A stretch of 64,000 nucleotides of DNA from Candidatus Acidiferrales bacterium (GTDB taxonomy: Bacteria; Acidobacteriota; Terriglobia; Acidiferrales; UBA7541): assembly GCA_035603075.1 (NCBI GenBank), contig DATNLC010000032.1:27462-91461 (forward strand), in the 5' to 3' direction. The position numbers and the translations under genes are program-made. Below are positions 218 through 49,400 of the stretch, one piece after another. The notes under the pieces are model-generated. The model did not search any database, had not been told where the DNA came from, and worked only from the letters and a program-made list of their open reading frames with translations. Within the stretch, counting starts at the first letter, position 1. The number at the start of each line of letters is the position of its first letter.

Positions 218-271
218 TCCGCTATGTTCGTTCCCCGCCGCGACAATACGCTCAATAAAGGAGGGCGCGAT

Positions 272-6635: not shown

Positions 6636-6758
6636 CCATTCGGTTAGTTAAGTCATCTGCGGGACGGCGAGCGGGGGTCATGCGATACGCGGATTCTCAC
6701 AACCGTCCCGCAACACAATCACCTACAGCGGTAACAGTCTCACTGGGAGCACTCAATC

Positions 6759-7010: not shown

Positions 7011-7022
7011 CAACCGACATTC

Positions 7023-7409: not shown

Positions 7410-7438
7410 CGATATCGCGGTAATGGGAGACGATTGAT

Positions 7439-12998: not shown

Positions 12999-13004
12999 CC
13001 GCTC

Positions 13005-13613
13005 ATGTACCGCCAAATCCCATCCACGTTCACGATCAACACCTCGAACACTCCGCAGCCTCTATTCGGCTCGTGGGTGACGGCGGGTGCCGGATTCACC
13101 CAGCCTGCGGGTGCGCCGCTCACTCTCACTCTGGGGACCGCGCTCGCTTCAGGTAACGACGCTTCGATGTTCCAACCCGGCGAACCCGCATGGTTGATCG
13201 ACCCGAATGGCGCACATGCCGAGACAGTTCGTATCCAGTCCATCTCCGCCAACACCGTCACCCTCGGGAATCAAACCGACTCGTCCTACCAAGGCGTCAA
13301 CCCCGTTACCCGGTTTGCTCACGCCGTCGGGGCGCTTGGAACGGGCACCTTCATCATGCCCAAGATCGAGTGCAACAACTTTCTGGTCGATCTCGAAGAT
13401 GGCGGCGCGGGCGCATTCCTCTATATAGGCTGCCAGTACAACATGACGGCGACCGCGTATCGAATATATAAATTAGCCAAGACCACAGCGGGGAATCAGC
13501 CGTTCTATTATTCGTCGGCGATGTATTCGCCTGGCAACCCCGTCTCAATCTACCAGCTATTCGTGATGGGGACCAATCCGGACGCTTACTGTCTCTCTTT
13601 GGAGATCGCGTGA
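13005..13613 (+). CDS. hypothetical virion protein
   Basis: 202 aa. Its stop overlaps the next start (TGATG at 13611-13615). Confidence 0.45.
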   Translation: MYRQIPSTFTINTSNTPQPLFGSWVTAGAGFTQPAGAPLTLTLGTALASGNDASMFQPGEPAWLIDPNGAHAETVRIQSISANTVTLGNQTDSSYQGVNPVTRFAHAVGALGTGTFIMPKIECNNFLVDLEDGGAGAFLYIGCQYNMTATAYRIYKLAKTTAGNQPFYYSSAMYSPGNPVSIYQLFVMGTNPDAYCLSLEIA

Positions 13614-20700: not shown

Positions 20701-20981
20701 TGGGCGCAAAAATCCATGATATGGGAAACGGCGATCGAGGCCAGCGCCTTTACGCCTTCCACTGCCCCGGCTGCGGCTACGGTCACAACTTTGAAGTCCC
20801 CCGCTGGACGTGGAACAGTTCACACGATAAACCGACATTTACGCCATCCCTGTTGTGTAACAAGGATTTTCCTGAGTCACGTTGTCATTCAAATGTGACT
20901 GATGGGAAGATACAATTCTACGGCGATTGCCATCATTCTTTACGGGGACAACTGGTCGATATTCCGGATTGGGACGACTGA
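20700..20981 (+). CDS. Cys/His-rich zinc-binding-like protein
   Basis: 93 aa. Contains HCPGCGYGH...CHSNVTDGKIQFYGDCHHSLRGQ. The GTG start overlaps the previous stop. Confidence 0.45.
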   Translation: MGAKIHDMGNGDRGQRLYAFHCPGCGYGHNFEVPRWTWNSSHDKPTFTPSLLCNKDFPESRCHSNVTDGKIQFYGDCHHSLRGQLVDIPDWDD

Positions 20982-22033
20982 TGTCCATCCCGATTCCCAA
21001 CCCGATCTACCTTCAAGCTCTCGACGGCTCGACATGGGTACCCGCCGTCGATAATACCGGGCGCGCCGATACTACCTCTCTCACCCCTCCTCCCGGCCAG
21101 TCCACAATTCCGTGGTACGAGTTGAACGATGTCTCGAACGGACTCACATATCGGCTGGTCGTGCAACCGTGCCCAAGTGTGCCCACTGGACCGAGCGGTG
21201 AGCTGCATATCGACGAGACGGTCTCCAATCCCAGTGCGCCCAATCAACTCCTCGTCTCCGCGCCCAACGGGATCGTTTACTTTCTCAATATCTCGAATGG
21301 ACGATTGCAATCCGGTCTCGCCGTGCCTGCAAACGCTTCCTGCTCCACGCTCATCAGTTCTCTTGCACTCCGCGTCCTCGACCGTCTTGAAGAAAGCGAG
21401 ACCGCCCCGATTTTCTGGAATCTCCCTCTCGAAGTCCTGACCGCTATCGTCGAGGCCATGAACGACCTGACCCTCCTCGTTGGCCGTCCCGTGATCGGCG
21501 TGCAACTCCCGTTCAATCTCAACCCGAACTCCGTCTGGCAGTATTTCCCGAAAGGAATCCTGTGCTTCACCGACATCTACGGCCCCTCGTCCCCGCTCCG
21601 CAAGCAAACTCTATTCGATTACGATTACATCCAGTTCAATTCCGGCTCCGACTGGGAGAACGACACTTCCACGTCCGGTCCCTCAACCTGGGCTCCCTTG
21701 GGGACGACTATGTTTATTGTTCACCCGGCGTCGAGTGCGCCGCAACAGGTAACGGTCAATGCCATCCTATATCCGGCTCCGACGCCTTGGCCGTATAGCG
21801 CGAGCCTGACCGTCCCGTTTCATGATGAATTCTTCGCGGCGCTGGAGTCCTACGCCGCACATATTCTGAGATTCAAGGAAAGCGGAGTGGATTTCAGCGC
21901 GTCGATGGCATTGTACGGGGACTATCTCACGCAAGCCGAGAGGATGAGCCAGATCGAAACCCGAAAGGACTCGCTATTATTTTCGCGTTCATTTGGTGTA
22001 CCATTTGGAACAAATCCGATTCAGAAAAGGTAA
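20981..22033 (+). CDS. virion structural protein, paralogue family member 2
   Basis: ATG 20981 overlaps the previous TGA (TGATG). 350 aa. The C-terminal pattern is LESYAAHILRFKESGVDFSASMALYGDY. Confidence 0.5.
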   Translation: MSIPIPNPIYLQALDGSTWVPAVDNTGRADTTSLTPPPGQSTIPWYELNDVSNGLTYRLVVQPCPSVPTGPSGELHIDETVSNPSAPNQLLVSAPNGIVYFLNISNGRLQSGLAVPANASCSTLISSLALRVLDRLEESETAPIFWNLPLEVLTAIVEAMNDLTLLVGRPVIGVQLPFNLNPNSVWQYFPKGILCFTDIYGPSSPLRKQTLFDYDYIQFNSGSDWENDTSTSGPSTWAPLGTTMFIVHPASSAPQQVTVNAILYPAPTPWPYSASLTVPFHDEFFAALESYAAHILRFKESGVDFSASMALYGDYLTQAERMSQIETRKDSLLFSRSFGVPFGTNPIQKR

Positions 22034-22371: not shown

Positions 22372-23544
22372 ATGGCACAGGTCGGCGTCGGATTCCGCAC
22401 TGTATGGTCCGTGATGCTCGAAATGTCGTTCGAGCTAGTCGAACCGTATATCTATTCGACTACGATTGGTGCCGTCGCCGCGCCCGGTGTCGCGACTATC
22501 ACAGTCAATTCCCTCGGCGTACCCGTCCCGGCCTGCTATCCCGGCGCGCAACTCATTATCGATAGCGGGCTGTCGGAGGAGATCATATCCGTCATATCCT
22601 CCAACTCCAACGTCACCCCACCCACCATCACTGCAATATTTGCGCTCCCGCACGCGGCCAACGTCCCGTTGATCGGTGCCACGTTTCCAACACAAGCGGT
22701 ATCGGGAGATTACTTTTTCTCGCAAGGTGAAATCCTCGGCTATCTGGCGCGCGCGCAGAACGTCATGTTGTCGGATGTCCCTATTGTGTTCGCGCTCAAC
22801 TACCAGACCGTGCAGTACGGCCAGACGCTCCAGCCGTTTCCATGCGATGTGGTCGAATGCCACAGGATCGCATCATCGTATGCGAACGTGGCGCTGTTGT
22901 CGCTCTCCCGGCTCAACAACGTGGTCACTGCGGTCTCGCTGTCCCCGCATGGACTCTCGGTCAACGAGAAATTCGCAGTCCTGTCTGCGCCCGATCCCAA
23001 CTTTGATGGGGCGTTTCGAGTGAGCACGGTGGTGTCTCCGACATCATGGTCATACCCGCAGATCGGGCCGAACGAGTCGATCTCCGGTGGCGGTTATGCA
23101 GGGCTGTGGCTGAGACTGCTGGAGGTATCGCAGGAACAGTTAGCAATGCAGAACCCGCAGTTCGCGCAGACGTTCATCACCAGTTTGCGATCATGGTATG
23201 AAGACCGTAGCGGCATCTACCAGTACGGACTCGGTGGCCGTCCCGCATCCAACTTTCCAGTCGAAGTGTTGTGCTCAGTGCGCGACAGTGACAGCCTCGC
23301 CATGACGGACGGCTTTCTGGTGCCAGATGTAATGCTCCACGCCGTCCGCTGGCTGGCGTTGCATTACTGCCTCGCAAAGGACGGTGAGCAGCGCGACCCA
23401 GCCCGCGCTCAGTATTGCAAGATGCGTTACGATAAGATTGTCATGGCAGTGCGGCGATGGTCTGGTTGGGTCGGCGGTCTCGGTGGGCGAGCAGAGCAGC
23501 AGATGGCGATGGCGGGAGCAGGCGCAGGCAAAGGTAGACGCTGA
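22372..23544 (+). CDS. virion structural protein, paralogue family member 3 (adaptor / tail tubular A candidate)
   Basis: 390 aa, immediately upstream of the 1143-aa protein with overlapping stop/start (TGATG). The C-terminal pattern is VRWLALHYCLAKDGEQRDPARAQYCKMRY. Confidence 0.45.
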   Translation: MAQVGVGFRTVWSVMLEMSFELVEPYIYSTTIGAVAAPGVATITVNSLGVPVPACYPGAQLIIDSGLSEEIISVISSNSNVTPPTITAIFALPHAANVPLIGATFPTQAVSGDYFFSQGEILGYLARAQNVMLSDVPIVFALNYQTVQYGQTLQPFPCDVVECHRIASSYANVALLSLSRLNNVVTAVSLSPHGLSVNEKFAVLSAPDPNFDGAFRVSTVVSPTSWSYPQIGPNESISGGGYAGLWLRLLEVSQEQLAMQNPQFAQTFITSLRSWYEDRSGIYQYGLGGRPASNFPVEVLCSVRDSDSLAMTDGFLVPDVMLHAVRWLALHYCLAKDGEQRDPARAQYCKMRYDKIVMAVRRWSGWVGGLGGRAEQQMAMAGAGAGKGRR

Positions 23545-29224: not shown

Positions 29225-29382
29225 TGGGATTTGGAATTCCGCTAGCGACGCACGAATACACCAGACCAGAGCAATCGACGCCTATGTGTCCAACTACCGG
29301 AGTCCCATGCAGTCAATGCGAGTGCGGCGGAGTCGGATGCGGTGAATCGGCAGAGTCGAAAAAGGGCGATGACACCAAATGA
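29224..29382 (+). CDS. 52-aa Cys-rich peptide
   Basis: TGATG overlap at 29222-29226. Reads MGFGIPLATHEYTRPEQSTPMCPTTGVPCSQCECGGVGCGESAESKKGDDTK. Not in the ORF track because it is under 60 aa. Confidence 0.4.
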   Translation: MGFGIPLATHEYTRPEQSTPMCPTTGVPCSQCECGGVGCGESAESKKGDDTK

Positions 29383-29726
29383 GTATCTCTTTCGATCTCC
29401 CCAATCGGCCACTGTCCTTCTTCGCCTTCCACGCCTTGTACCGCGAGTGGTCGTACATGATCGCCAGTTGGTCTGTCTGTCTCGCCATCCTGACCGCGTT
29501 CTTCCACCTCGCCGCATGCTACATATTCGCGTCATCCGTAATTCTGTCGTTGTGCTTTATCGGGCTACTGACTTTGTTCTACGAACTTTCTCAGCACACG
29601 CCATCTTCCTATACCGAATGGCGGAGATTCCTTATCGTCATGCTAGGGTATTGGTCAATTATCACATTCGCCGCCGGGCTGGTTGTTGGCTCATACCAGT
29701 TTTGCAATCGAGGTCTTCCGCAATGA
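29379..29726 (+). CDS. small integral membrane protein (about 3 TM)
   Basis: 115 aa with ATGA overlaps at both ends. Hydrophobic stretches include MIASWSVCLAILTAFFHLAA, IFASSVILSLCFIGLLTLFY and FLIVMLGYWSIITFAAGLVVG. Confidence 0.55.
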   Translation: MSISFDLPNRPLSFFAFHALYREWSYMIASWSVCLAILTAFFHLAACYIFASSVILSLCFIGLLTLFYELSQHTPSSYTEWRRFLIVMLGYWSIITFAAGLVVGSYQFCNRGLPQ

Positions 29727-30049
29727 CCACCACCAATTTCTCCCACGCTCTCCCCGACACACTGACCCGCGAACAGATCGAGACCTCGGTCATCGTCATG
29801 GTGAGCGAGCAGTCCGGCCTGCCAGTCACGCTCACGACCGATCTCAGACAGATCAAACTGGATTCGCTCGATTACGTGTCATTGGCCTCGTGGATGGAGT
29901 CGGAGTTCAATCTCCCGCCGATATCGGATGTCGACCTGTTTCGGTTTCAAGTCGTGTCACAGTTGGTCGACTACGTGGTCGCAGCCAAAGCAGAGTTGGC
30001 GAAAGCGGCGGAGTCGAGAGTAAGACAGGAAGCGGAGCAAACGGTGTGA
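29723..30049 (+). CDS. acyl carrier protein-like (phosphopantetheine carrier) protein
   Basis: 108 aa. SEQSGLPVTLTTDLRQIKLDSLDYVSLASWMESEFNLPPISDVDL...QLVDYV aligns by eye with E. coli AcpP ([41 protein letters not shown]..AIDYI), including the DSL serine. Confidence 0.7.
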   Translation: MTTTNFSHALPDTLTREQIETSVIVMVSEQSGLPVTLTTDLRQIKLDSLDYVSLASWMESEFNLPPISDVDLFRFQVVSQLVDYVVAAKAELAKAAESRVRQEAEQTV

Positions 30050-30050
30050 T

Positions 30051-30248
30051 ATGGGAGTCGTCCCCGGACCATACGACGTTCACGGCTGGCACGCTTTCAG
30101 GAGTGGCTGGCAGGGTGAGTCTTGGTGCGCGGAATGCGACTGCTTGGGATCTCGGCACGTATCCGAACAGGAATATGAATCTCGTAAAGCGGAATTTGAA
30201 GCGGATGCCAAGCGTTTTAACCGAATGTGCGAAGAAGAGGAGATATGA
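30051..30248 (+). CDS. small hypothetical protein (WCAECDC motif, acidic C-terminus)
   Basis: 65 aa, starting 1 nt after the ACP stop. Confidence 0.4.
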   Translation: MGVVPGPYDVHGWHAFRSGWQGESWCAECDCLGSRHVSEQEYESRKAEFEADAKRFNRMCEEEEI

Positions 30249-30249
30249 G

Positions 30250-30618
30250 ATGAATCGCAGACTGTTTCTGGGCAAGGGCGTGATGGGGATGGTGGGGGCG
30301 ATCGCGGCGGCAATAGCAGTACCATTTACGAAGAATGAGCGCTCGTTCCAAGAGGAAGCTGCCGCCAAGGCGGTGGAAGAAATAACGTTCGAGCGGCGGG
30401 TGCGGGCGGCAATGCAGCGTGCGGATTGGGACGCTCTCGATCCCAAATCTCCGGGTGCATTCATCCGCAAGAGTAACAATGTCGCAGGCGATTTGGAGTT
30501 CACGCGCAAAGCGGATTTCCCGTACAAAGATTCTGTTAAGGGTTTGAAGGAGTTGCATATCCGTTTGGATCGATTGGCGCGCGCACTCCGGGCCAATGCC
30601 GTAGAGGATATTACCTAG
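30250..30618 (+). CDS. Tat-signal protein carrying a portal-like segment
   Basis: The N-terminus MNRRLFLGKGVMGMVGAIAAAIAVP fits a twin-arginine RRxFL motif plus an h-region. Residues RADWDALDPKSPGAFIRKSNNVAGDLEFTRKADFPY parallel the portal segment KADWDALDPGAAGGKIATNNNAPGKLEFAKRAEFPF. Confidence 0.55.
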   Translation: MNRRLFLGKGVMGMVGAIAAAIAVPFTKNERSFQEEAAAKAVEEITFERRVRAAMQRADWDALDPKSPGAFIRKSNNVAGDLEFTRKADFPYKDSVKGLKELHIRLDRLARALRANAVEDIT

Positions 30619-31329
30619 GTGAGCGATTCCATCCTCTCTGTATTCGCCGCCGACGATTGGCGTATGGGCGACCTCCAAATAGTCCCCTATGACCGCCGCC
30701 GCGTTGACATCTTCGGCACCGGATACCTGCTTCATTTGTACAACGAATGTCTCCTGTCCCGCCCGACCGACCCATACGGCATCCTCAGCGACGTATTCTG
30801 CGGAATGACCGACCTGTCCGCCGATGCGATCTGCTCTTATCTCGCCAACAAACCTATCAGTCTCCTCTGCGTCCACACCTCCGCTACCGAATTCACTCCC
30901 GCTGGATTCTGCTGGCCAACGGAAGTGATACGAGCGCAATCGACCAGCTCGGCATTCTGTGCGTTCGCATTTTTCCGCAACTGGTGGGGAACTCCCGAAT
31001 GCACCGTACTCGGAATGCTGGGTATCGCCTACCTGTTCGAGAGTTTGGTATTGACCGCCATCCACGGGCAACGGTACGCTACTAACGAGCCTGCCGCACG
31101 GTGGATGCGGCAATTCGGAGCCAAGGATATCGGGGTGGTCCCATATCTGTTACGCTCCCACGACGGCGGACTCGAAGCGTGTACGGTATCGACACTGTTA
31201 CGGGCGGATTTTGAAGCGTACACTCGCAAACAGTTAATCACACTCGCGGGAGCGGCGGTCACGAATGGGCAAGTCGGGGAACAATCTCAACGACGTGAAC
31301 CCGCAAGTCCAGCAATCCCTTCTGTCTAA
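30619..31329 (+). CDS. GNAT-fold-like (acyl/acetyltransferase-like) protein, tentative
   Basis: 236 aa with a GTG start next to the previous TAG. The C-terminal half (AFCAFAFFRNWWGTPECTVLGMLGIAYLFESLVLTAIHGQRYATNEPAARWMRQFGAKDIGVVP) resembles a GNAT core ending in N..A.r....GF. It overlaps the next gene by 65 nt. Confidence 0.35.
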   Translation: MSDSILSVFAADDWRMGDLQIVPYDRRRVDIFGTGYLLHLYNECLLSRPTDPYGILSDVFCGMTDLSADAICSYLANKPISLLCVHTSATEFTPAGFCWPTEVIRAQSTSSAFCAFAFFRNWWGTPECTVLGMLGIAYLFESLVLTAIHGQRYATNEPAARWMRQFGAKDIGVVPYLLRSHDGGLEACTVSTLLRADFEAYTRKQLITLAGAAVTNGQVGEQSQRREPASPAIPSV

Positions 31330-36993: not shown

Positions 36994-39099
36994 GTGGCCT
37001 TTTGCCGTCGCCGCTCTATCTCCCCCTCTGCTACCCTCGACACGAGCACGACTATATCGCTACTACAATCCCTCATGGCGAGGTTCGATCCCGACATGCG
37101 AGCGTCACGCAAACGCTTTACCCGGCCAAAGAAAATGCAGGCCATTCGCCGCAAGCCAGTCGGCGACGGCACGGCAACCAGTCGTTATATGAACTCCACC
37201 GCTGGGCGTGCGGCCATGAAAGAGGCGTTGGGTGTCCAACGTCACAAACAAGCCAACATCTGCGCGGACTGCGGACGATGGTTGCCGTGGGAGAGCGCAC
37301 GATTTAAGTATCATGAGTGTCCGGATGGAGTCGAGAACGTAGCCACCCACAAAGGTAAATGTCCTGTCGATGCCAATTTGGGGGCGGTGCACGAGGGAGG
37401 ACCAACGCTGTCATCGGTGATCATTCCCGTGATTGTCGCGATTGCGTTGTGTCTGGCCGCTCCCAGTTTTATGCACGCGCAAGGCGGGTCGATTAGCGGA
37501 ATGGTAATCCAGCCGGGTCCACCGAATGGAACTGGCGGTCCTGCTCCGTCTGCTGCCGTCCGCGTGTGCCCCTACATCGGAGGCTCCGGCACTCCATGCT
37601 CACCGACCGCCAATTTATTTCTCGATCCCGGATTGACGATTGCATCACCGAATCCAGCGACATCAGATAGTTTTGGCAATTACAGTTTGTGGGTGTCTCC
37701 CGGTGCGTACTTGGTTCAAGTCGTACCGATTAATGGTTTCCTTTACAGTTATCTGGTCCAAGCTGTCGCTGGCACCGTTACCTCGGTTGGGCTTTCGATG
37801 CCATCCACGGTATTCTCCGTATCTGGCTCCCCGGTCACTGGTTCGGGTATTCTGGCTGTAACCTTTCTACCCCAATCCGCCGGACTCGTATTCGCCTCCC
37901 CAACCAACGCATTCGGGCTGCCTACATTTCGTAACTCCGCACCCGGCGATTTTGGCTCCCAGTCCGCGAACACCGTGCTCGGCAATTGCACTTCGGCCTC
38001 GGCCTCCCCCCTGTTCTGCGCACTCACTGCATCAATGATTCCATCCACGCTAAACTCCACCGCATTCTCCGGCCAAATCTCCGCTCCCTCTCTCGTACTC
38101 AACTCCGGTACCCCGCTTACCACCACCAACCAGTCCGGCACAGGGTCCATCGTTCTCACAAACAGCCCAGTCATCACCACCCCTACCATAGACTCCTGTC
38201 CGCAACTAAGTGGCGTTGGGGCTTGCAGCACGATACAGAACTATTCCATCACCGGAACCGCGCTCAACACCCTCACCAAACTTGCCAATACAGGCGGCGT
38301 TGCGGCGGTCGTCGCAGCTTCCACATCAGATACAGGTGGCGTAATCGGAGTCGTTATCGCAGGTGCCGGGACATCGGGCAGCGCCAGCGTGATCACAAGC
38401 GGAGCCGCTCAGTGTCAATTCGACGGATCAACGACCGGAGGGGACTATATCCAGATCAGTTCGACTCTGGCCGGGTACTGCCACGATACGGGAATCGCGC
38501 CACCCCTGTTTCCTTCCTCCGGGGGGCAGGTGGTAGGGAGATCCGCCGGAACCTTCGGCGGCGCAGGCGTCTATTCGATGCTGTTCGAGCCCGAGGCGCA
38601 GGCGGGTGGCGTTAGGACATTGTGCGCGAGTGGAACGCTTACCACTGTCAACGCCAACACCAATAGCGTGCAGACTATCGAAACGTGCCCGATTCCAGCG
38701 GGCGCACTCAACTCTATCGGTAAAACGTTCCGGGCGACATTCTACCTGCAAGTCGCTCCCAGCGGGACGTCCAACAGCCTCCTGTATTTCAATATGGGCG
38801 GATCACCTACGCTGGCTGGCGGCGGATTATTAGCATTCCAAGGCTCAAGCGCGGTCAGTTGGGAAATCAGTGCGCAGGCGACTTGCACGACGACCGCCAC
38901 AGGCATAAGCGGCGCAATCACCTGCGCGATCACTCCCACGGTCGTTGGGGGGACAGCGTCATATACCATCCTCAATAACGTCTACTCGGGCATTAATCTG
39001 ACGCAACCTCTGTATGCGGGGACGGCGTGTTTGTTTCTGACTGCTAGTTCGTCCAACTCGTGCGCACAATCAATGTTCAGCGTGGAGCAATTGAATTGA
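36994..39099 (+). CDS. tail-fibre-like protein with an in-frame N-terminal basic Cys/His module, an internal TM/signal-like segment, a carboxypeptidase-regulatory-like domain and fibre repeat modules
   Basis: 701-aa ORF. Residues of about 28-130 are basic with CADC...YHEC. Then comes VIIPVIVAIALCLAAPSFMHAQ, then GSISGMVIQPG...SFGNYSLWVSPGAYLVQV, then VTSVGLSMPSTVFSVSGSPVTGSGILAV. The true start is uncertain (36994, 37075 or about 37387-37417). Confidence 0.5.
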   Translation: MAFCRRRSISPSATLDTSTTISLLQSLMARFDPDMRASRKRFTRPKKMQAIRRKPVGDGTATSRYMNSTAGRAAMKEALGVQRHKQANICADCGRWLPWESARFKYHECPDGVENVATHKGKCPVDANLGAVHEGGPTLSSVIIPVIVAIALCLAAPSFMHAQGGSISGMVIQPGPPNGTGGPAPSAAVRVCPYIGGSGTPCSPTANLFLDPGLTIASPNPATSDSFGNYSLWVSPGAYLVQVVPINGFLYSYLVQAVAGTVTSVGLSMPSTVFSVSGSPVTGSGILAVTFLPQSAGLVFASPTNAFGLPTFRNSAPGDFGSQSANTVLGNCTSASASPLFCALTASMIPSTLNSTAFSGQISAPSLVLNSGTPLTTTNQSGTGSIVLTNSPVITTPTIDSCPQLSGVGACSTIQNYSITGTALNTLTKLANTGGVAAVVAASTSDTGGVIGVVIAGAGTSGSASVITSGAAQCQFDGSTTGGDYIQISSTLAGYCHDTGIAPPLFPSSGGQVVGRSAGTFGGAGVYSMLFEPEAQAGGVRTLCASGTLTTVNANTNSVQTIETCPIPAGALNSIGKTFRATFYLQVAPSGTSNSLLYFNMGGSPTLAGGGLLAFQGSSAVSWEISAQATCTTTATGISGAITCAITPTVVGGTASYTILNNVYSGINLTQPLYAGTACLFLTASSSNSCAQSMFSVEQLN

Positions 39100-42000
39100 C
39101 ACGGCGAGCGATACAAAGGTTGGCTATCGTACTGCTCGGGTTGTGCGCGATCGCATCCGCCCAGTTGACCAATGTCGCAGTCACCGCGATGACGCCGACA
39201 TCGGCCACCGTATCATGGACCTCGGTCGCGCCATCATCGACGCAGGTCTATTTCGGACTCAACGGGCATCTGAATTCCTATACGCCGCTCAACCCGGCGC
39301 TGGTCACGTCCCACACCGCCACCCTCACCGGGCTGATCGTGCCATCGCCGGGATCGATCATCTCCTATGCCGCGGTGTCCGTGGATGGATCGGGGAACAA
39401 ACTTACCTCTCCCACGCAACAGTTCGTTCTCTGCTCCTCCGGTCAATCCGGGATGGTACAGACCTCGGGCACGATCAACAACTATTACGAGTACGGCGGG
39501 ATGACATTAACATGGACCAATCAATCCGGCCAGTCCATCACGCCTACTGTCTGCGGCACGCCGATCCCCACCACGATTACCAAATCCCTCGACGGCGGCG
39601 GGTCGTTCTCGGCTCCCGTGCCTGACTCGCTGCAAATTGTCCCCTCACCGTCGCAGTGGACGGCGACTGCAAACTCCGTCGGCGGCATCGGAGTGTTTTC
39701 GATTGCACCCGTCACCATCACGGGGCCATCGTTCAACCTGTCAGCGCCGTTGCAAGTTGGCGCGATCGGCCAGACCATCCACGTCTGGTGGGATGCCGCT
39801 ACCAACACTTTCTACCCTCCGCTTCCCGGCACAGGCTCCGTCACCTCAGTCGGCCTCGGCGTCCCCGGAGGATTCCAGGTCTCAGGCTCCCCAGTCTCCG
39901 GCGCGGGCATTCTCACATGGGGTCTGCCAGTCGGTTGGGGCACGGGATCGTTATTAGTCGGCAACGGTGCCAATTCCGCGACGGTATTACAACCGGGGTC
40001 AAGTGGCACCTGCATCGTGTCTAACGGCACTGGAGTAGCGCCGACATACCAGACATGCGGTACGGGGACGATTACGGGACCAACCACGGGAGGTGGACTG
40101 GTTCTCACGGGATCGACTCTCGGCAACCAGATATGCGGCACAGGTCAGGTACAGTCTTATAACGGCACCGCATGGGTATGCAGTGGCGCGGGAAACGTAT
40201 CCACATCCACGGTGGTGAGCCAGAATATCGTGCAGCCTCCGGGGACGCAATTTTCCGCCAACAACGTAGATGGCATCCGGTATGTGGACCTGAGTCCGGG
40301 AACCTTCAACTGGTCGCAAACCATCTCCGTCGCGCTCACCGCCAACACCCCGGCAACAGTCACGATCACCCCGTGCCCGCTTGGGATATGGGGCACCGAT
40401 ACCACGTCCTATATCAAGCTCTCGAATGGATCGACCACGGAATACGATCCGTTAACGGGGTCGGGAACATGCACGGCAGGAGCAACTTCGGGGACGATTA
40501 AATTCACTCCGCAGAACACCTTTACGGCGACCTCTATCGGATCGGCGACGGCAGGTATTCAGGAAGCCCTGAACGATGCCTCCGGGCAGGCCAGCGCGGG
40601 ATCGCGGCGTGGTAATTACGCGCTGAAATTCCAGCCCACGAATCCCCCAGCGACGACCTACTACCAGATCAACGCGCCGATCACAGTTCCAGTGGGGATC
40701 GCGGATATCGACGCCTCGGGCGCGTCGTTTGACTGCGAATCGACACAAGGCGCGTGCTGGTATTTTACGGCGGGCGAGATACTATTCCACGGAGCGCGGG
40801 TCGGAACCAAAAATCAGATTGTAGCGGCGGCGATTACAGCCACCGCGTGCGCCTCAAATGTTCGTACTTACACCACCACGCTGAATCCTCCGGTTGGATC
40901 CGTCGTGGATGTGCAAGGAACCGATCTGCCGCAATACTGGGGACGGTACCGGGTGGCCACCACTTCCTCAACCTCGTTCACTGCCACTGTGATCCCCACC
41001 GGCGCGGCAGCTACGTGCTCCAATCAATCGACGACAGCGACGCCGGGCGGCGTGGCCATCGACAAGACGTTTATCGAAACCAACGCCGACAACGGGCTAC
41101 ATGTCTCGGACATTTATTACGATCTTCCCGGCTGGGATCCGGGGTATTTGCTGACTTCGCTCATTGTGGTGGATAACGATCAGGATTTCCGGGCGGATAG
41201 AGTTTACACATCCTTCGATGGCTCGTCTCCGAATTCCTGCACCGCGATTTACTGTCCCCAGGTTTTCTACGCGCCGGGCGGTACGGCAGGGAATCCGCTG
41301 GGCAGCATCCACAAGTCCAACTTAAGCGTGAGCGGCGCGGCGAACGGAGTCAAATGGCTGGCGGGTGAAACCATTTCTATCGGGGATGCGACGATCATAC
41401 AGGGCGCTCCGCAGTATTCGGTGATGGCGGGGCAGATGCGCGGCGGCAGCGGCGGCGTGGCTACTTCCGGCCTGTACAACGAAATCGGCGGCGCATTCAA
41501 TCCGCTCTATGTAGCGGCGGGACTGACCACTGCGCAATCGCAGGCGGAAGCGGGCGTCAACGTAGTCGGCGGATTTCTCGATTTGCACACCCAGGTCGGA
41601 GGATTCTCGCCGGGAATTACGGGATCGCTGCCGACCTTCGCCACCGGCGGTTCGACGTTATACCTCTACTCTGCGGTGATCTGCGACGGCACCAATTGCA
41701 CGCTGCCACTACCCTTCGGGCAGGCGGCTCCCGCAAGCAGCGCCTCCTACACCATTGCGTGGCCGCACTACGGATCGCAGACCGGCTCGACCGTCACTTA
41801 CTGGATTTTGAAGACCAGCGGCATTGGCGGAATTTTCAATTTCCCTTTCCCTTATGGGACAGGAAACTGGTCGATTGCGTCTTCGGCCTTTGCCCAATGT
41901 TCCGGGCTGATCTGCACTACCACGGATTCCACATCGACGACGCTGCAACCTTACACCGTGCTGAGTTTTCCGACGCTGATTCCTTATCTTCCGGGCTGGC

Positions 42001-45000
42001 CGGGGTCGGTTGTGTTAGGCAACGGCGCGACGATGTACTCCGATTCGGGGGTTCCCTCAAGCGTAGTGGTGACTTCCAATAACTCTCCGGCAGTCTATGC
42101 AACGCGGCTGGATCAACTGACGCCGGGCGTCTATGCCAGCTCGCTATCGAATACGACGCTGGTGTCCGGGCCGGGGGGAACGACGTTCAGCACTGGCGGC
42201 ACCATGCTGCAAAACGGCGTTAACTCCTCGAACGGGAATGGATCGATGGCTCCGAACCTTAAAGGACGGTTGATCTTCGAGCCGAATTCGAGTTTGACCG
42301 ATCCACTGAACTCGACGCACGTCATCACGATTAACGATTCCAATCCTGCGAAGACACTGGCCGATCCCTCGCATCGTCCAGTCAACGACGTTAACGACGT
42401 ATACATTGGACTGGATCAGGGGGCGGCGGCAACCAACGCTCAGGCAGGGTTGAGTTTCGGCGCACCCATGGCCATCTCTAACTACATCGGCAACGTGGGC
42501 GATGGAGTGAGTTGGGGAGAACGGCTGACCGCCACGTCGAAGACGTTTCAGGTCGCACAAACCAATGTGCTGGGAAAGTTGTACGTCAACGGAATCACCA
42601 TCGGACCGGCGTTTCCGATACAACTTGTGCCACCATCCACCGATCTCTTCACCGGCTCGGGCGGTCTGGGCGGCAATTGGACGATATTCTGCGGAACCTG
42701 GACCAAAGCCAGCGGGCAGGCGACAGCCACGGCCACGTGCAGCAACAGTTACACGGCGGCGGCGTATACGGGTGGCGGAACCGTGGCCGCGAATCAGTTC
42801 AGCAGCGTGAAATTGGCAGCCTTTAACACTCCGGGATCGCTGATGGGGGCGGCGGTGCGGGTTTCGACTTCGGCGGAGACTTACGATGCCTGTCTGGCAT
42901 TAGGCGGAGGGTCGGTGTTGCAGGAAATGGTGGCTGGAACCGGCACCAATATCGGAACCCCCTCCTCGGGGCCGGCAGTGCCGATTGGCGATACGCTGGA
43001 GACGGTCGTTTTAGGCAACCAGTTGACTTGTTACGACAATGGCGTGCCCATCATTACAGGAACGTCCTCGATTTCTTCCGGCTATCCGGGCATCGCGGGC
43101 GGAGACAACGTAGGGTTCGTCTCGAATTTCCAAGGCGGGCCTCTGAATTATGACGTGAATGGAACTCTTATTTTCCCGGCATATGCCTCGGCGGGTTATC
43201 AATGCGCGCACTTCGATCCCACTGGGACCCTTTTACCGACCGGCTCGGATTGCGGATCAGGCGGAGGCGGCGGAGGAGTAACCAGTGTGGCTATGACCGT
43301 TCCGTCATGGTTATCGGTTGCGGGATCGCCAATCGTCACTTCGGGCACTCTGGCGGTGACTGCGGCTACGGGACAGACCGCGCACAAAGTCATCGGTACG
43401 GGAACGGGATCGTCGTTTTCTCCAGTCAGTCTGGTTACGGGGGATCTGCCGTTCACATACTCCGGTAACACCACTGAATTGGGAACCGTAAGTGGCGCGC
43501 TCACCCCCACACACACAATTGTCTCTGATGCCAGCGGCAATCTGATCGATTCTGGAACCACGGGCGGCTCGGGGACGGTTACGTCGGTCGCGATGACGGT
43601 GCCTAGTTGGCTAGCAGTGACAGGAAGCCCAGTGACGGGTGCGGGTACACTTGCGGTCGCAGCCGCAACCGGTCAAACATCCCATAAGGTGATCGGGACC
43701 GGCACTGGAACATCCTTCGGTGTGGTCAGCCTCGGGACTGCCGATCTGCCATTCACGTATAGCGGAAACACAACCGAACTGGCGACTGCCACAGGTACTC
43801 TCACCAACGGTCATTGTGTATCTATCGATGCCAACGGAAACTTTGTAGATTCCGGAGTGCTCGGGTGCAGTGGCAGCGGCGGCGGGGGAGTGACATCGGT
43901 GGGATTGGCTGCGCCGACCGGGTTTGGTATCACGGGTAGTCCCGTCACCACATCAGGAACACTTACGCTTGCTATGCCAAGCGGATGGACCACCGGAGAC
44001 ATGTTGCTGGGTAATGGCTCCAACTCCGTCACCCGCCTCGCTATCGGAGCCAGCGGCACATCTCTTCAATCGAACGGCACCACCGCGTCGTGGCAGACGG
44101 CGGGCACGGTGTCGAGTGTGGCTCAGACTTTTACCGGCGGACTGATATCGGTCGGCGGCTCTCCGATCACCTCTACGGGTACTCTCGCGCTTACAGTCGC
44201 GGGCACATCGGGCGGCATTCCATATTTCTCGTCATCGTCTGCGTGGGCGTCATCGGCAGCCCTGACCGCTAATCTGCCTGTGATCGGCGGCGGCGCTGGC
44301 TCGGCCCCTACCGTGGGATCGGTCACGGGCAATACCACTAAATTCGCGACCAGCACGGGTGCGCTCACCAATGGCCATTGCGTGTCGATTGACGCAAGCG
44401 GCAATTTCGTAGACTCCGGTGTGTCGGGATGCGGCGGCGGCAGCACAGGCAGCATCACCGTCAATAGCGGATCGGCGCTCACGTATCCGGTTAATTTCGC
44501 CAATTCCGCTGCGGTCACCGGGTTGCAGATCGTGTTTACGAATCCATCGGGATCGAATGTCGCGGCGGCGATCAGCGGCGCGCTTACCAATGCTGGGCTA
44601 GTCAATTCCACAGTTACCCTAAATGGACAGTCGATCAGTCTCGGCGCGTCCGGTAACGTCAATGCCGGAAATACCATTCATTCCATCGCGCTGAACGAAG
44701 GCAACGGGAATCAAATCGGCGCGACCGCGACTGGCACATCGGGACAACCATTATTGTCCGGCGGATCGGGAGCCGATCCCGCGTATGGACCGCTCAATAT
44801 CAGCAATTCGTCCAACATCACGGGGCTGGTGCCGACCGCTAATCTGCCGCTGACCGTGATGTATACCAACGTCGCCAACACGATCTCATCCGGGGATAAA
44901 CTGACCGTGACTCCGAGCAGCACCACCTCGGGATTCAATCTCGGATCGGTCACTGTGGACCCGTCGAGTCTGGCTGGCGGCGACATATGGTTCCGGACGG

Positions 45001-46403
45001 ACTTGAATCAGATATCGTACTACGATGGCTCCAATACCCAACTGGTGATGGATCAGAATACACCCGTTTCGCTGGCACAACTCAACAACTCGGTGCCTGC
45101 CGTGGGCATGATCCCGTATGTGAATGTCGGAGCGACTGCGTTGTCGTGGCTGACCGATCCCGCGAACAATTGTTATCTGGCGGCGGGGAGTAGTGGTCCG
45201 TTTTGGGATTCCAATCTTTGTTACAACACGGGCACGGGAACGCTGACTGTCACGGGCGCGGGTGGGATCACGACTGCCGCGCTCCACCTAACGGGGCCAG
45301 CGTACATCACTACGACGATTCCCGGAGGAGCGCCTGCTTTACCGGGAGCAAGCCAGTCCGCATTGGCCGTAAACACCGACGGGCACTTCTATGAATCCGC
45401 CAGCAACGGTGCATTCTCCAGATTTCTGGTTGCCAGTCTGCTCACGGGAAACACTACAAATGTGGTGAGTGGCGCGAGCACAATCGCCACCGCTCCCAAC
45501 AACGATCTGATCTGCGGGGATGGGTCGGGAAACGTAAAGGACTGCGGGTCGGCTTCCGCCATGCTGCCGTTGGCTACCGGACATCTATACGCAGGCGTAT
45601 TCGGAGCCGCAGCGGATGCGGGTACGGATTTTACCCTCAATACCAGTACGCACACATTCGCGGCGGGATCGACGGGTATATTCACTCTGGCTGCCGCCTC
45701 TGCCGCGACTGGATTCAAGGTCCCCACGGCGACTGGTGCCGCGCCGACCGCCGATGGGCAGGTAGCGTTCAACTCCACCACTCACTATCTCGTGTTCGGT
45801 TCCAATGGATCGACCAGAACGGCTGCCAGCGCGGCATCGAGTGTCGCATCGGCTCCGGCTAACGACGTAATCACGGCTGATGGAAGCGGCAACGTTCAGG
45901 ACTCGGGCACTCTCCTATCAAGTCTGGCCCCACTGGCGTCTCCCGCGCTGACGGGTACTCCCACTGCGCCAACTCCGAGCACCGGAGACAATTCCACGAC
46001 AGTTTCTACTACAGCTTTTGTCAAGAATCAGAATTACGCTTTACAGAGCAAAGTGGGGGCGGTATTCCAAGTCACCGCCAGCTCCATCACGGGTATCGTG
46101 GGCGCTGATTTCGCCGGGTCGATGCGAGCCGATCACACACTGACCGTACAAAACATCACGGCGTCGGCGGCAGCTCTGGCGACCTGCACCACAAATCCAA
46201 CGATCACATTCCTGGAATGCGGCACTTCGGCGACATGCGCGAGTCCAACCACCATAGGCACGGTTACAGTCACGGCGGCCAACGCCATCGTCAACGGCAC
46301 AGTCAGCAGCACCACCGTCAACTCCGGCGATTACGTGGTTGGGGAGGTTACCGCCGGAGCGTGCGCTACGTTATCCAATCTGAGCGCGGCAATGGCTTAC
46401 TAG
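39060..46403 (+). CDS. giant tail fibre protein (2447 aa) with a signal-like N-terminus, an FN3-like domain and repeated fibre modules
   Basis: The N-terminus after a possible TTG at 39096 is (M)TRRAIQRLAIVLLGLCAIASAQ. It has an FN3-like stretch (TNVAVTAMTPTSATVSWTSVAPSSTQVYFG), several VTSV..P....V.GSP.T..GTL modules and the fibre motif SPALTGTPTAPTPSTGDNSTTVSTTAFV near the C-terminus. Confidence 0.7.
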   Translation: MRTINVQRGAIELTRRAIQRLAIVLLGLCAIASAQLTNVAVTAMTPTSATVSWTSVAPSSTQVYFGLNGHLNSYTPLNPALVTSHTATLTGLIVPSPGSIISYAAVSVDGSGNKLTSPTQQFVLCSSGQSGMVQTSGTINNYYEYGGMTLTWTNQSGQSITPTVCGTPIPTTITKSLDGGGSFSAPVPDSLQIVPSPSQWTATANSVGGIGVFSIAPVTITGPSFNLSAPLQVGAIGQTIHVWWDAATNTFYPPLPGTGSVTSVGLGVPGGFQVSGSPVSGAGILTWGLPVGWGTGSLLVGNGANSATVLQPGSSGTCIVSNGTGVAPTYQTCGTGTITGPTTGGGLVLTGSTLGNQICGTGQVQSYNGTAWVCSGAGNVSTSTVVSQNIVQPPGTQFSANNVDGIRYVDLSPGTFNWSQTISVALTANTPATVTITPCPLGIWGTDTTSYIKLSNGSTTEYDPLTGSGTCTAGATSGTIKFTPQNTFTATSIGSATAGIQEALNDASGQASAGSRRGNYALKFQPTNPPATTYYQINAPITVPVGIADIDASGASFDCESTQGACWYFTAGEILFHGARVGTKNQIVAAAITATACASNVRTYTTTLNPPVGSVVDVQGTDLPQYWGRYRVATTSSTSFTATVIPTGAAATCSNQSTTATPGGVAIDKTFIETNADNGLHVSDIYYDLPGWDPGYLLTSLIVVDNDQDFRADRVYTSFDGSSPNSCTAIYCPQVFYAPGGTAGNPLGSIHKSNLSVSGAANGVKWLAGETISIGDATIIQGAPQYSVMAGQMRGGSGGVATSGLYNEIGGAFNPLYVAAGLTTAQSQAEAGVNVVGGFLDLHTQVGGFSPGITGSLPTFATGGSTLYLYSAVICDGTNCTLPLPFGQAAPASSASYTIAWPHYGSQTGSTVTYWILKTSGIGGIFNFPFPYGTGNWSIASSAFAQCSGLICTTTDSTSTTLQPYTVLSFPTLIPYLPGWPGSVVLGNGATMYSDSGVPSSVVVTSNNSPAVYATRLDQLTPGVYASSLSNTTLVSGPGGTTFSTGGTMLQNGVNSSNGNGSMAPNLKGRLIFEPNSSLTDPLNSTHVITINDSNPAKTLADPSHRPVNDVNDVYIGLDQGAAATNAQAGLSFGAPMAISNYIGNVGDGVSWGERLTATSKTFQVAQTNVLGKLYVNGITIGPAFPIQLVPPSTDLFTGSGGLGGNWTIFCGTWTKASGQATATATCSNSYTAAAYTGGGTVAANQFSSVKLAAFNTPGSLMGAAVRVSTSAETYDACLALGGGSVLQEMVAGTGTNIGTPSSGPAVPIGDTLETVVLGNQLTCYDNGVPIITGTSSISSGYPGIAGGDNVGFVSNFQGGPLNYDVNGTLIFPAYASAGYQCAHFDPTGTLLPTGSDCGSGGGGGGVTSVAMTVPSWLSVAGSPIVTSGTLAVTAATGQTAHKVIGTGTGSSFSPVSLVTGDLPFTYSGNTTELGTVSGALTPTHTIVSDASGNLIDSGTTGGSGTVTSVAMTVPSWLAVTGSPVTGAGTLAVAAATGQTSHKVIGTGTGTSFGVVSLGTADLPFTYSGNTTELATATGTLTNGHCVSIDANGNFVDSGVLGCSGSGGGGVTSVGLAAPTGFGITGSPVTTSGTLTLAMPSGWTTGDMLLGNGSNSVTRLAIGASGTSLQSNGTTASWQTAGTVSSVAQTFTGGLISVGGSPITSTGTLALTVAGTSGGIPYFSSSSAWASSAALTANLPVIGGGAGSAPTVGSVTGNTTKFATSTGALTNGHCVSIDASGNFVDSGVSGCGGGSTGSITVNSGSALTYPVNFANSAAVTGLQIVFTNPSGSNVAAAISGALTNAGLVNSTVTLNGQSISLGASGNVNAGNTIHSIALNEGNGNQIGATATGTSGQPLLSGGSGADPAYGPLNISNSSNITGLVPTANLPLTVMYTNVANTISSGDKLTVTPSSTTSGFNLGSVTVDPSSLAGGDIWFRTDLNQISYYDGSNTQLVMDQNTPVSLAQLNNSVPAVGMIPYVNVGATALSWLTDPANNCYLAAGSSGPFWDSNLCYNTGTGTLTVTGAGGITTAALHLTGPAYITTTIPGGAPALPGASQSALAVNTDGHFYESASNGAFSRFLVASLLTGNTTNVVSGASTIATAPNNDLICGDGSGNVKDCGSASAMLPLATGHLYAGVFGAAADAGTDFTLNTSTHTFAAGSTGIFTLAAASAATGFKVPTATGAAPTADGQVAFNSTTHYLVFGSNGSTRTAASAASSVASAPANDVITADGSGNVQDSGTLLSSLAPLASPALTGTPTAPTPSTGDNSTTVSTTAFVKNQNYALQSKVGAVFQVTASSITGIVGADFAGSMRADHTLTVQNITASAAALATCTTNPTITFLECGTSATCASPTTIGTVTVTAANAIVNGTVSSTTVNSGDYVVGEVTAGACATLSNLSAAMAY
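43278..43877 (+). repeat. tandem 100-aa coding module duplicated inside the giant fibre gene, conserved at protein level and recoded at DNA level
   Basis: Copy 1 starts at 43278 and copy 2 at 43578 (300-nt period). Both read VTSVAMTVPSWL.V.GSP...GTLAV.AATGQT.HKVIGTGTG.SF..VSL.T.DLPFTYSGNTTEL. More diverged copies lie at about 43890, at about 39838 and in gene 36994-39099. Confidence 0.8.
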
Positions 46404-46417
46404 TACAGTGGATCGTA

Positions 46418-49400
46418 ATGCGAAAATGTCTACTCACCCTCGCTTTAGCCGGGATTTGCACTGTGTCTCAGGCGCAGACTCTATGGAACGGCATCCTCGA
46501 CCCATCGCGCGCGATAGTATGGAATCCCGGCGCGCCGCTGATTAACGAAACCCGGACCCAGTGCGGCTCTACTATCGCGGCCTATACTGGAACCGCTGCG
46601 ACGATCAACAACGCGATTGCCGCGTGCGGCGCACACCAATATGTTCTTCTCGGTGCTGGCACATTCACTCTTTCATCGGGTATCAACTTCTTCAAAACCG
46701 GAACCACACCCAACAGTTATGTGACTCTCCGTGGTCAAGGCGCGAACTCGACGTTTATCGTCTTCTCGGGTTCGATCTCCAATTCCAATTACTGCAACGG
46801 TCACGATGTCTGCGCGGCGGGGGGAGACAACAACTACGCGAACGGCGGCGCGATTAACAGCGCAAATTGGCTGGGGAGTTGTATCACACTCCCATGCACA
46901 TCCGGGACCTACGCCAAAAACGCAGCCTATGTGTTATTGAGCGCCGACACCAATCTCTCCAACGGTGCACCACTCATCCTCGACCAGATCGACAATCAGA
47001 CCGACAACGGCAACCTCTACGTCGGGTGCGAGATTTACGATCAATCCAATCCCTGCTACAACGGTACCTCGACCAGCGGATTCCAGCGCGGGGATGGATC
47101 GCTCACCACTGTTCGCGGCCAGCAGCAAATCGTCAACGTCAACGGCACGATAACGGGCACGGGACCGTACACGGTACCGATCTCCCCCACCATTTACGCC
47201 GCGAACTGGAATTCCGCTCAATCTCCCGGCGCGTGGTGGTCGTCTATCCCTGTATACGGCGATGCAGTCGAAGACCTGTCGCTCGACCACACCAACAACG
47301 GGTCCACTGCGACGGATGGTATTATTTTCTACAACTGCACCGGATGCTGGGCGAAGGGTATCCGCAGCATCCGCAATAGTTCCACCTCCGCCAATTGGGG
47401 ACACGTGGATCTGGCATCGTGCAACAAATGCACCGTCCGGGATTCCTACTTTTGGGGATTCGCGTGCGGCACATCGGGAGGCAGTTGCGACACCTACGGC
47501 ATCCCGGCGCAGACCGCATCGGATGATCTGGTGGAGAATAATATTTCCCAACTCCCCGGCGAGACGCAGTTCTACAATTCCGACTGCGAGGGGTGCGCGG
47601 CGACATACAATTACGCCGCTGGCACGGGATTCAGTTCCGCGGGCTCCAACTGGCTGGGTGCGCCGAACCAGTTCCACTCGATAGTCCTGTTCGCGCTGGC
47701 CGAGGGGAATATCACCGCCGCCTACTATGGCGATAATTTCCACGGCTGCCACGATCTCAACACGTTTTTCCGCAACCGCTGGGACGGCTATCAGACCAAT
47801 CAAGGATACGTGACCAGTTCCGAAACCGTTCCTCTGCGCATGAACCCCTGTGATCGGTATGAGAATGGAATATTCAACGTCATTGGCAGCCAGTTGCTGC
47901 ACCAGCTCTACTCCTCGTCGCCGCCGGGCACCAACCTGTATACGTCGGTAGTCGGTCTCGGCACCTACCCCGAAGTAGGTCTGGCATGCGGGCCATCGAG
48001 TGGATTGATCGCGTGTGCGGATTCACTGGTCGCCACCACCCGGTATCTGTGGGGTAATTACGCGGAATGCAGATCGACCTCCACGTCGGCAGAATGTAAC
48101 GCCCAGAGTTTCAACTCCGCAGAAGTCCCCAGCAGCGGCCTCCCCGGTGGACTGTATCAAAACGCGGTACCATCCACGCACACTGCGCCACCGTCATTCC
48201 TGTATTCCTCGCAGCCATCGTGGTGGCCCGCGGGAAAAGTGTGGCCACCTGTGCATCCCGAAAACACCACAGGCGGGAACGCCGGCCAGTGCTACAAAAC
48301 ATCCACGGGCATCGCGCCATGCACCGACACGGGAGTCACATTTTGCTCCTCGGAAGCCACCAATGCCAGTCAATGCGGTAGCGGGGAGTCGTTTGCCCTG
48401 TCCGCTGGTGGCCGCGTCACCTCCAACCCCGCGATGGACTGCTACCTCAACACAATGAGCGGAGCGGCGAACGGCACCGGAGGCCCGTATGCGTTTGACA
48501 GGCTAACGTGTTACCCGGCAGCGAGCACTGCACCGGTAGTGTCGTTGTCCGCAACCACCCTGACATTCGGCCCACAGGCATCGGGGACTACCTCTGCTGG
48601 GCAGTCCATCACGGTCACCAACACGGGAACGGCCACCCTCAACATCTCATCCATCGCGATCGCCAATGTTCTGCCCACGAGCACGCAATTCGCGAACACC
48701 ACCACATGTGGATCGACATTAACCGCCTCGTCCAGTTGCACGATCACGGTCACATTCCACCCGACATATTTCGCACCCAAGACCGCTACTCTCGTCCTGA
48801 CCACAAACGCAACCTCCAGCCCGAACAACATCTCGCTCACCGGGATCGGTGCCCCGGCTGGCAGCAACATGGTACTCTATCAATCCGGCACCCATCCAGC
48901 GCAGCAAATCAACGCCTACGCTCCCCCGATCAATTCCAGTGTCAGCACATACTCCCACCTGATCGGCTCGGGGACGGGGATTCTGAATCTATTCACGCCG
49001 GGACAGTACCTGACTGGCGTCACTTGGTTCCCTAACGTAGGCTGCACGGCGTCCAACTGCACGGGAGCCAACGGCACCTACCTCGATCACGTCGGCACGT
49101 CTTCCATCGCGGGCGGTGGATGCCCGAATATCGTGTTCTCGGGGTCATCCCCGCAGGACATCGACAATGTGGTCGATAAAGTGGCCGCGCTCGGATACTG
49201 GAACAATTTCATCCCCGTCAATACCAGCTACGGCGCGGGCGGCGGGACAGGCAACACCGCGACTCCGGGATATGAGTTCACTCAGGATTGGGCGGATAAT
49301 CTCGACACCGATTGCGCGCACCAGAGCGGGGTGTTGTCCCGACAGAATAGCGGCTACTATCTTCCCGGTGACTACATCCTGTTCGGCGGACAGTACTGGC

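Follow-up and report, generated by a model that had tools for sequence, protein, structure and literature searches.

How does a short open reading frame (ORF) among the late genes of a phage come to encode a piece of the portal protein behind what looks like an export signal, and what might such a protein do? The ORF in question occupies positions 30250 to 30618 on the forward strand of a 64,000-nucleotide stretch of contig DATNLC010000032.1 (the window), which belongs to a ~103-kb podovirus-like soil phage. A first-pass annotation of the window had described it as a piece of the portal joined to an export signal, and both elements are present: a segment derived from the portal gene and an N-terminal export or anchor signal. 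The 122-residue product is a chimera of a signal or signal-anchor, a linker, and a portal-derived module of ~56 residues, and we hold the anatomy and origin described below with high confidence. The ORF was found in place with the sequence quoted for it, is intact from its ATG to its TAG codon, and is an annotated gene call on a 102.7-kb ENA soil-metagenome contig. A Shine-Dalgarno element (GAGGAG, 30237-30242, forward strand), read directly from the sequence, lies 7 nt 5' of the ATG. The stop codon of a 65-residue ORF precedes the ATG by 1 nt, and the GTG start codon of a gene for a 236-residue protein directly abuts the stop codon of the 122-residue ORF.

A portal clip segment in a small protein

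BLASTP aligned residues 52 to 107 of the small protein with residues 389 to 444 (nt 5692-5859) of the portal protein encoded in the same window, without gaps, with 23 identical and 36 positive positions out of 56 (E = 3e-13). The Smith-Waterman score was 123, while 2,000 shuffled sequences scored 32.3 ± 4.7 with a maximum of 56 (z = 19); the portal-like segment noticed earlier thus stands, and chance similarity is ruled out. In tblastn searches, the portal gene was the sole significant second match of the protein in the whole window. At the DNA level, the match of 20 of 23 positions between 30421-30443 and 5710-5732 was found again, and the overall identity across the 168-nt segment is 54%. 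The full portal architecture of wing, stem, clip, and crown is not present in the small protein, since residues 52 to 107 alone align and a portal has ~600 residues, and no Pfam or PHROG portal profile matched it. The similarity is significant and specific to the clip region of the portal, as expected of a clip paralogue. A global alignment (A3) scattered the N-terminus of the protein.

The 624-residue portal protein itself is recognized by two weak matches, to PF23899 SU10_portal (29 bits) and to phrog_1216. An AlphaFold2 (AF2) model built from 41 family members has a predicted local distance difference test score (pLDDT) of 77, and Foldseek matched it to the portals of Pan3, N4, SU10, T7, and P22, with E values down to 5e-16. 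In the model, a long helix at residues 356-381 is followed by a strand at 385-388, a short helix at 394-397, strands at 408-411 and 420-421, another long helix at 429-446, and then a low-confidence loop, an order that corresponds to the canonical layout of stem helix, clip, stem helix, and tunnel loop. In portals generally, the clip comprises three strands and one helix and is placed between the two stem helices; it serves as the docking station for the terminase and the tail and also takes part in contacts between subunits (PMC12847820). Because the order of elements in the model fits this generic layout, the copied piece is, on this model, the clip domain without its first strand together with most of the ascending stem helix. 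Mapping the shared segment onto a portal structure prediction, as the first-pass annotation had suggested, therefore places it on the clip domain and second stem helix, where terminase and tail dock. The ADWDALDP run, the best-kept part of the copy, spans the clip helix of the portal model. The clip helix is also where the immune sensor SpbK docks on the portal of SPbeta (YonE); SpbK is activated by clustering on the 12-mer, and a mutation in the clip helix allows escape (PMC12847820; PMC11984713).

Residues 52 to 107 of the small protein are therefore homologous to the clip and second stem helix of its own phage's portal, a region equivalent to that of SU10, N4, T7, P22, and SPbeta YonE. In contrast to those portals, the small protein keeps ~56 of 624 residues and lacks the first stem helix as well as the wing, crown, and tunnel loop. 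In addition, it carries a membrane-targeting leader and has 41% identity to its source.

The leader and the twin-arginine question

The N-terminus of the protein (MNRRLFLGKGVMGMVGAIAAAIAVPFTKNER) contains a 15-residue core, GVMGMVGAIAAAIAV, with a mean Kyte-Doolittle hydropathy of 2.2 and a maximum of 1.87 over 19 residues. The core is flanked N-terminally by a charge of +3 and C-terminally by none, cysteine is absent, and Gly and Ala make up 53% of the core. A possible cleavage site lies between AIA and VP, with K28 and R31 farther downstream. Among six-frame ORF starts of at least 50 residues in the 64-kb window, this is the only one in which RR-x-hydrophobic-hydrophobic is accompanied by a hydrophobic, uncharged run of 13 residues or more. 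These features make a convincing signal or anchor, for which an N-in/C-out orientation is predicted.

The first-pass annotation had gone further and called the leader a twin-arginine translocation (Tat) signal. The RR-x-F-L motif and the hydrophobic core on which that call was based are indeed there; profile searches gave it no backing. TIGR01409 (cutoff, 16.7 bits) did not match the protein even at E ≤ 10, although HMMER filters may hide very weak matches, while in the same run it detected the leaders of the Escherichia coli controls TorA (17.0 bits) and FtsP (21.1 bits) above the cutoff. PF10518 (TAT_signal; cutoff, 22.7 bits) also gave no match; it detected one of the two controls, below its cutoff. 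The possibility that the protein is a genuine Tat substrate, which would fold in the cytoplasm and be exported by Tat alone or with a bound partner, is one we regard as real and rather doubtful. In its favor, N-R-R-L-F-L-G-K agrees with the S/T-R-R-x-F-L-K consensus at RR, F, and L, and the leader has the Gly/Ala-rich, weakly to moderately hydrophobic h-region and the c-region with A-x-A and basic residues that are typical of such signals. The leader also weakly resembles the N-terminal part of Rieske proteins of proteobacteria, signal-anchors inserted by Tat (TIGR01416, E = 0.068, a match well under the cutoff). On the other hand, N stands in place of S/T, the lysine comes one residue after its place in the consensus, the leader falls short of the usual length (~23 residues) with just two residues of n-region before RR, and the positive-inside rule also yields RR ahead of a transmembrane segment. 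The leader could equally be a Sec/SRP signal-anchor or resemble a signal-arrest-release (SAR) domain.

Origin, age, and setting of the copy

We compared the portal-derived segment with the portals of 41 family members. The highest score was obtained with the portal of the same phage (123), followed by that of its closest relative, P0003 (121). The motif G-x-LEF is found in the small protein (VAGDLEF), in its own portal, and in P0003 (APGKLEF) only, while all the other family portals have AP-x-A-P-EF. Since this derived motif is common to those alone, the copying took place inside the sublineage of the window portal and P0003, and the module arose through partial duplication of a portal gene of that sublineage.

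Identity between the copy and its own portal segment is 0.55, 0.62, and 0.43 at the first, second, and third codon positions, respectively. For the same 56 codons, the window and P0003 portal genes have a third-position identity of 0.38 to 0.40 and a protein identity of 86%. The similar third-position identities indicate that the duplication is about as old as the split between these two portals, and by the same comparison the copy's protein sequence has diverged roughly 4 times faster than the portal. By the Nei-Gojobori method, the synonymous divergence (dS) between copy and portal is 1.39 and the nonsynonymous divergence (dN) is 0.61, and 9 of the 23 identical residues are encoded by different codons, including 4 within ADWDALDP. 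Near-saturation of synonymous sites marks the copy as old. That all 122 codons have stayed open and the motif has been kept through such change argues for a frame that has undergone translation and some degree of constraint; on average the constraint is weak, with ADWDALDP and a few other positions kept.

The gene itself is an ORFan, unique to this phage. A word-indexed search of 5.8 billion proteins returned the protein itself alone. Exhaustive phmmer searching of 1.84 billion representatives returned the protein itself, one family portal (E = 2e-5), and two giant repetitive proteins, which we judged to be compositional matches; no other homologue was found. Nothing significant was found in INPHARED phages, nor anything in scans of IMG/VR and GTDB genomes. 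The portal family, by comparison, is well sampled, with 91 homologues, many of them on contigs of 50 to 100 kb. Using the conserved downstream gene for the 236-residue protein as an anchor, we recovered the corresponding slot in nine relatives, and the gene is absent from all nine. The first-pass annotation had made conservation in related phages a test of its proposal; on this point the result went against it, even in the very close relative L003. There, flanks of 92% and 94.6% nucleotide identity enclose an unrelated 194 nt, with a different 65-residue ORF, in place of the 577-nt cassette of the window. The slot between the acyl-carrier-protein (ACP)-like gene and the gene for the 236-residue protein is empty in L004 (the P0003 phage), L005, and L008; it holds a 39-residue ORF in L002 and an unrelated 145-residue ORF in L007. 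L006, L009, and L010 have another arrangement, with no recognizable ACP-like gene.

As described in bioRxiv 10.1101/2023.04.06.535777, accessory regions of phage genomes carry fast-evolving genes whose products target other viruses, the defenses of the host, or the surface of the cell. Because gene content here varies between conserved flanks in near-identical genomes, the slot counts as a hypervariable accessory region within the late operon. It shares with the described regions its conserved core flanks, its variable content between near-identical genomes, and its small, fast-evolving ORFans. It differs in that the known ones are mostly early-region genes of enterobacterial phages, whereas this slot lies inside a block of late virion genes, and a sigma-70 scan revealed neither a promoter nor a terminator belonging to it.

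Reuse of the clip appears to have happened more than once in this phage family. When IMG/VR was scanned at the DNA level with degenerate codons for DWDALDP, nine portals came up, along with many chance matches and one small ORF. The latter is a 155-residue ORF (P0119; 13333-13800, reverse strand) of L054, a 13.9-kb contig (IMGVR_UViG_3300018017_000034, JGI Ga0187872_10003060) from a family member with a portal 57% identical to that of the window. Residues 8 to 49 of this ORF (PKGAMPAADFDGL...VKYNNNSPAVPTF) match the clip of its own portal, with PKGAMPAAD identical at 9 of 9 residues despite six synonymous differences, and residues 114 to 153 (...RADWDALDPALAGGKI) match residues 374 to 413 of the window portal (E = 4e-9). 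It is present on 8 contigs in the protein collection, and its peptide motifs are kept while its synonymous sites are saturated. It lies upstream of TerL; a neighboring gene (12749-13336, reverse strand) encodes a 195-residue protein whose N-terminus carries a transmembrane segment, and next come a 367-residue ORF, a NUMOD4-HNH endonuclease, and TerL. Like the 122-residue protein, then, it is a small non-portal ORF of the same phage family with clip-derived sequence that includes R-A-D-W-D-A-L-D-P. Unlike it, it contains two partial clip copies, has no signal peptide, and occupies a different genomic position. Outside the clip motif the two cannot be aligned, and the L054 ORF appears to represent an independent event. 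Searches of IMG/VR and JGI metagenomes with DWDALDP, RADWDALDP, and KYNNN[AS]P yielded, besides portals and chance matches, no clip-derived small ORF other than that of L054/L066.

A related observation concerns L005, where the orthologue (1-543, forward strand) of the conserved protein with multiple transmembrane segments encoded at 29379-29726 of the window has a loop, RADWDEINPP...SN, found in L005 only. The loop is identical at 13 of 27 positions to residues 57 to 79 of the 122-residue protein (pairwise E = 1e-3), a value that is marginal after multiple comparisons, so that chance is possible. R-A-D-W-D opens all three non-portal copies, and no portal of the alignment has R at that place.

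The features of the window are collected in Table 1. Searches of Pfam, PHROGs, and NCBIfam with the 122-residue protein and its neighbors gave no informative match. The 65-residue ORFan of the cassette has four cysteines (WCAECDC...C), and the unrelated ORF at its place in L003 has the same length. The PP-binding (ACP-like) gene is kept across the phage family within the virion-gene block, an unusual location. The first-pass annotation had placed the gene next to internal-core genes; this is plausible from gene order alone, and those genes belong to no recognizable families. Of the two adaptor-like genes, which are close neighbors, the first matches Pfam SU10_adaptor at 31.4 bits, above the cutoff, and the second weakly, at 20.6 bits; the two may be paralogous head-to-tail adaptors. 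Two giant ORFs, at 39060-46403 (2,447 residues) and 46217-53005 (2,262 residues), overlap by 187 nt as listed and match no phage family; the latter has an ASH/HYDIN-type immunoglobulin-like domain at residues 774 to 878. At the end of the window, a gene at 62889-63980 (reverse strand) that matches the family A DNA polymerase domain of Pfam (E = 5e-68) starts an oppositely oriented replication module.

Table 1. Features of the window that bear on the chimeric gene
Feature	Position	Strand	Remarks
TerL	563-2821		First in window order, before the portal gene
Portal gene, 624 residues, podovirus type	4528-6402	+	PF23899 SU10_portal, phrog_1216, Foldseek
Source-type portal segment, residues 389-444	5692-5859	+	Predicted clip domain after its first strand and most of the ascending stem helix (AF2 model)
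Major capsid protein	8291-9265		After the portal gene
Adaptor-like genes	20927-22033 and 22372-23544		Followed by a gene for a 1,143-residue protein
Small genes			Include those for conserved multi-transmembrane and ACP-like proteins; then the cassette, then large unannotated proteins of up to 2,447 residues
Conserved left flank, ACP-like (PP-binding) gene	29723-30049	+	Orthologues in L002-L005, L007, and L008
Variable cassette, 577 nt	30043-30619	+	Replaced by an unrelated 194 nt in L003
65-residue Cys-containing ORFan	30051-30248	+	Same cassette as the 122-residue ORF; also absent from relatives
122-residue ORF (P0001), chimeric accessory gene	30250-30618	+	Intact; Shine-Dalgarno element; tight packing with neighbors; gene call on the source contig
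N-terminal signal or signal-anchor, residues 1-24	30250-30321	+	n-region MNRR, RRLFLGK motif, G/A-rich core, possible cleavage between AIA and VP
Portal-derived module, residues 52-107	30403-30570	+	Clip helix ADWDALDP, NN, G-x-LEF, FP, then a helix
Conserved right flank, gene for a 236-residue protein	30619-31329	+	No assigned function; 24 homologues with 38-95% identity

Contigs with relatives of the portal have been assigned to metagenome-assembled genomes of Terriglobales, Acidobacteriaceae, Terracidiphilus, and other Acidobacteriota, which suggests, as far as binning can tell, that the host is a diderm member of the Acidobacteriota. On the opposite strand of L003 (99-3391; ENA WILH17-1 scaffold_1827), just upstream of the shared late genes, lie an IS1595-family transposase, a RelA_SpoT-domain protein, and a trypsin-like protease. 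The block is absent from the equivalent place in the window, and a mobile-element insertion or a misassembly is possible. A link from this RelA_SpoT gene to portal-RelA/SpoT antagonism was dropped, because the binding surface in T7 is not the clip (PMC13483052). In the P0003 phage, a homing-endonuclease-like gene (HNH_3/AP2; L019, 2359-2890, reverse strand) sits immediately downstream of the portal gene. No homing endonuclease was found in the window, where the region after the portal gene (6403-7438) has only a Gly/Pro-rich 128-residue ORF (7023-7409). A homing endonuclease beside the portal gene as the cause of the duplication is thus unsupported: one is present in the P0003 phage and one near TerL in L054, with none in the window.

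What the protein might do

The gene is probably functional. Since the portal clip packs against neighboring subunits, docks terminase and tail, and in SPbeta binds SpbK, the copied clip would most likely serve as a module for self-association or partner binding. We favor a function in the cell envelope because the predicted topology is C-out. The protein would be inserted in the inner membrane N-in/C-out, either cleaved or tethered, with the clip-derived module facing the periplasm. The module would be used much as in a portal ring, for packing against neighboring subunits or as a docking surface, so that the protein would associate with itself at the membrane or interact with a partner able to recognize a clip-like surface. 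Its role would then be a dispensable one, as is typical for genes of accessory regions, such as blocking the entry of related phages or tuning the timing of lysis. Sp, Imm, and RI of phage T4, all of them experimentally tested, offer a parallel in layout: they are small, begin with a signal or anchor that leads into a periplasmic domain, are dispensable, and act at the envelope on superinfecting phage or on lysis timing. The 122-residue protein is similar to them in size and predicted topology; it differs in that there is no sequence similarity and none of the three is derived from a virion protein. Among the roles considered in the first-pass annotation (portal mimic, decoy, assembly factor), that of an assembly factor finds no support: such work in the cytoplasm would fit the predicted C-out topology poorly, and the absence of the gene from near-identical phages speaks against participation in capsid assembly, which is unlikely. 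Taken as one package, from anatomy through to envelope role, the favored reading falls a little short of an even chance, and the specific envelope role is doubtful when judged by itself.

Several results weigh against this interpretation. No periplasmic partner of a clip is known; the sites where terminase and adaptor work are cytoplasmic or extracellular. Topology and cleavage were predicted by simple rules. The single-sequence AF2 model of the protein is of low confidence (pLDDT 58) and shows helices throughout, with no clip fold; it is uninformative and was not used. The ratio dN/dS on the copy's own branch is perhaps near 0.8, a rough estimate made with no orthologues of the gene found. 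The gene is dispensable, being absent from the 92 to 95% identical relative L003. Finally, no sigma-70-like promoter or intrinsic terminator was found by scanning the flanks of the cassette, although the promoter type of the host may differ. Because none was found, the gene is presumably read together with the late operon, and we rejected its classification as a moron, that is, an autonomous transcription unit.

An alternative that we consider unlikely is that the protein works toward the cytoplasm as a clip decoy, its clip-like helix mimicking the portal surface and titrating a sensor, terminase, or adaptor, or holding it at the membrane, without offering the dodecameric platform by which such sensors are activated. 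The dependence of SpbK on the clip helix and on 12-mer clustering (PMC12847820; PMC11984713) is what such a decoy would exploit, and several features are consistent with it: the part of the copy that has been kept best, through synonymous changes, is exactly the clip helix ADWDALDP, the gene lies in an accessory region, and the L054 ORF, having no signal peptide, would be cytoplasmic. The predicted N-in/C-out topology, however, would place the module in the periplasm, no defense system is known for these hosts, and the late-operon timing that would match portal synthesis is itself presumed. A broader version, in which small proteins with the clip helix R-A-D-W-D-A-L-D-P would form, in this family of Acidobacteriota phages, a recurrent accessory class of non-activating decoys or membrane sinks for a clip-recognizing host sensor or a rival-phage protein, is improbable. 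If it were true, the class would counter clip-sensing immunity of the SpbK/Avs type, with the window protein as a membrane-targeted version and that of L054 as a soluble one.

We assign a similarly low probability to the view that the gene has no function and is a by-product of illegitimate recombination in a slot prone to it, which would have dropped a portal fragment into an open frame behind a fortuitous leader. A singleton ORFan missing from all relatives examined is what this would produce, and the speed at which the protein has diverged (41% identity, compared with 86% for orthologous portals whose synonymous divergence is similar) points the same way. It sits poorly with 122 codons that remain open despite near-saturated synonymous sites, with an ideal Shine-Dalgarno element and exact gene junctions, with identity that declines from the second to the first to the third codon position, with an N-terminus whose signal-like character is unique among ORF starts of the window, and with the independent L054 ORF that keeps the same motif through synonymous changes. 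A role as a lysis component is very unlikely, whether as an i-spanin or as an RI-like antiholin, in both of which a transmembrane or SAR segment at the N-terminus precedes a helical domain in the periplasm. The architecture and size of the protein would fit, its Gly/Ala-rich core resembles SAR domains, T4 RI is comparable in layout (PMC8385771), and the gene stands in the late operon two genes after the conserved multi-transmembrane protein at 29379-29726, a candidate holin. Against this, the gene is absent from close relatives and hence does not serve an essential lysis function, and no endolysin or holin is recognizable nearby. A two-component spanin was rejected: the transmembrane segment is present, but no lipobox ORF is embedded in or adjoins the gene, and hence there is no o-spanin partner.

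The 122-residue gene is an ORFan of an accessory region that arose when part of a structural gene was duplicated. An essential virion gene supplied a piece encoding the exposed docking surface of the portal, and this piece was combined with a targeting leader into a new phage gene; that surface is bound by the terminase, by the tail, and by at least one characterized bacterial immune sensor. The L054 case suggests that the clip lends itself to repeated use as a module, and that its reuse here was no isolated accident. Should the gene prove functionless, it would still be a well-dated partial gene duplication in a phage hotspot. If its product binds clip partners, it would provide a handle on portal-sensing defenses, on exclusion between phages in a phylum of hosts that has been little studied, and on the birth of ORFans in accessory regions.

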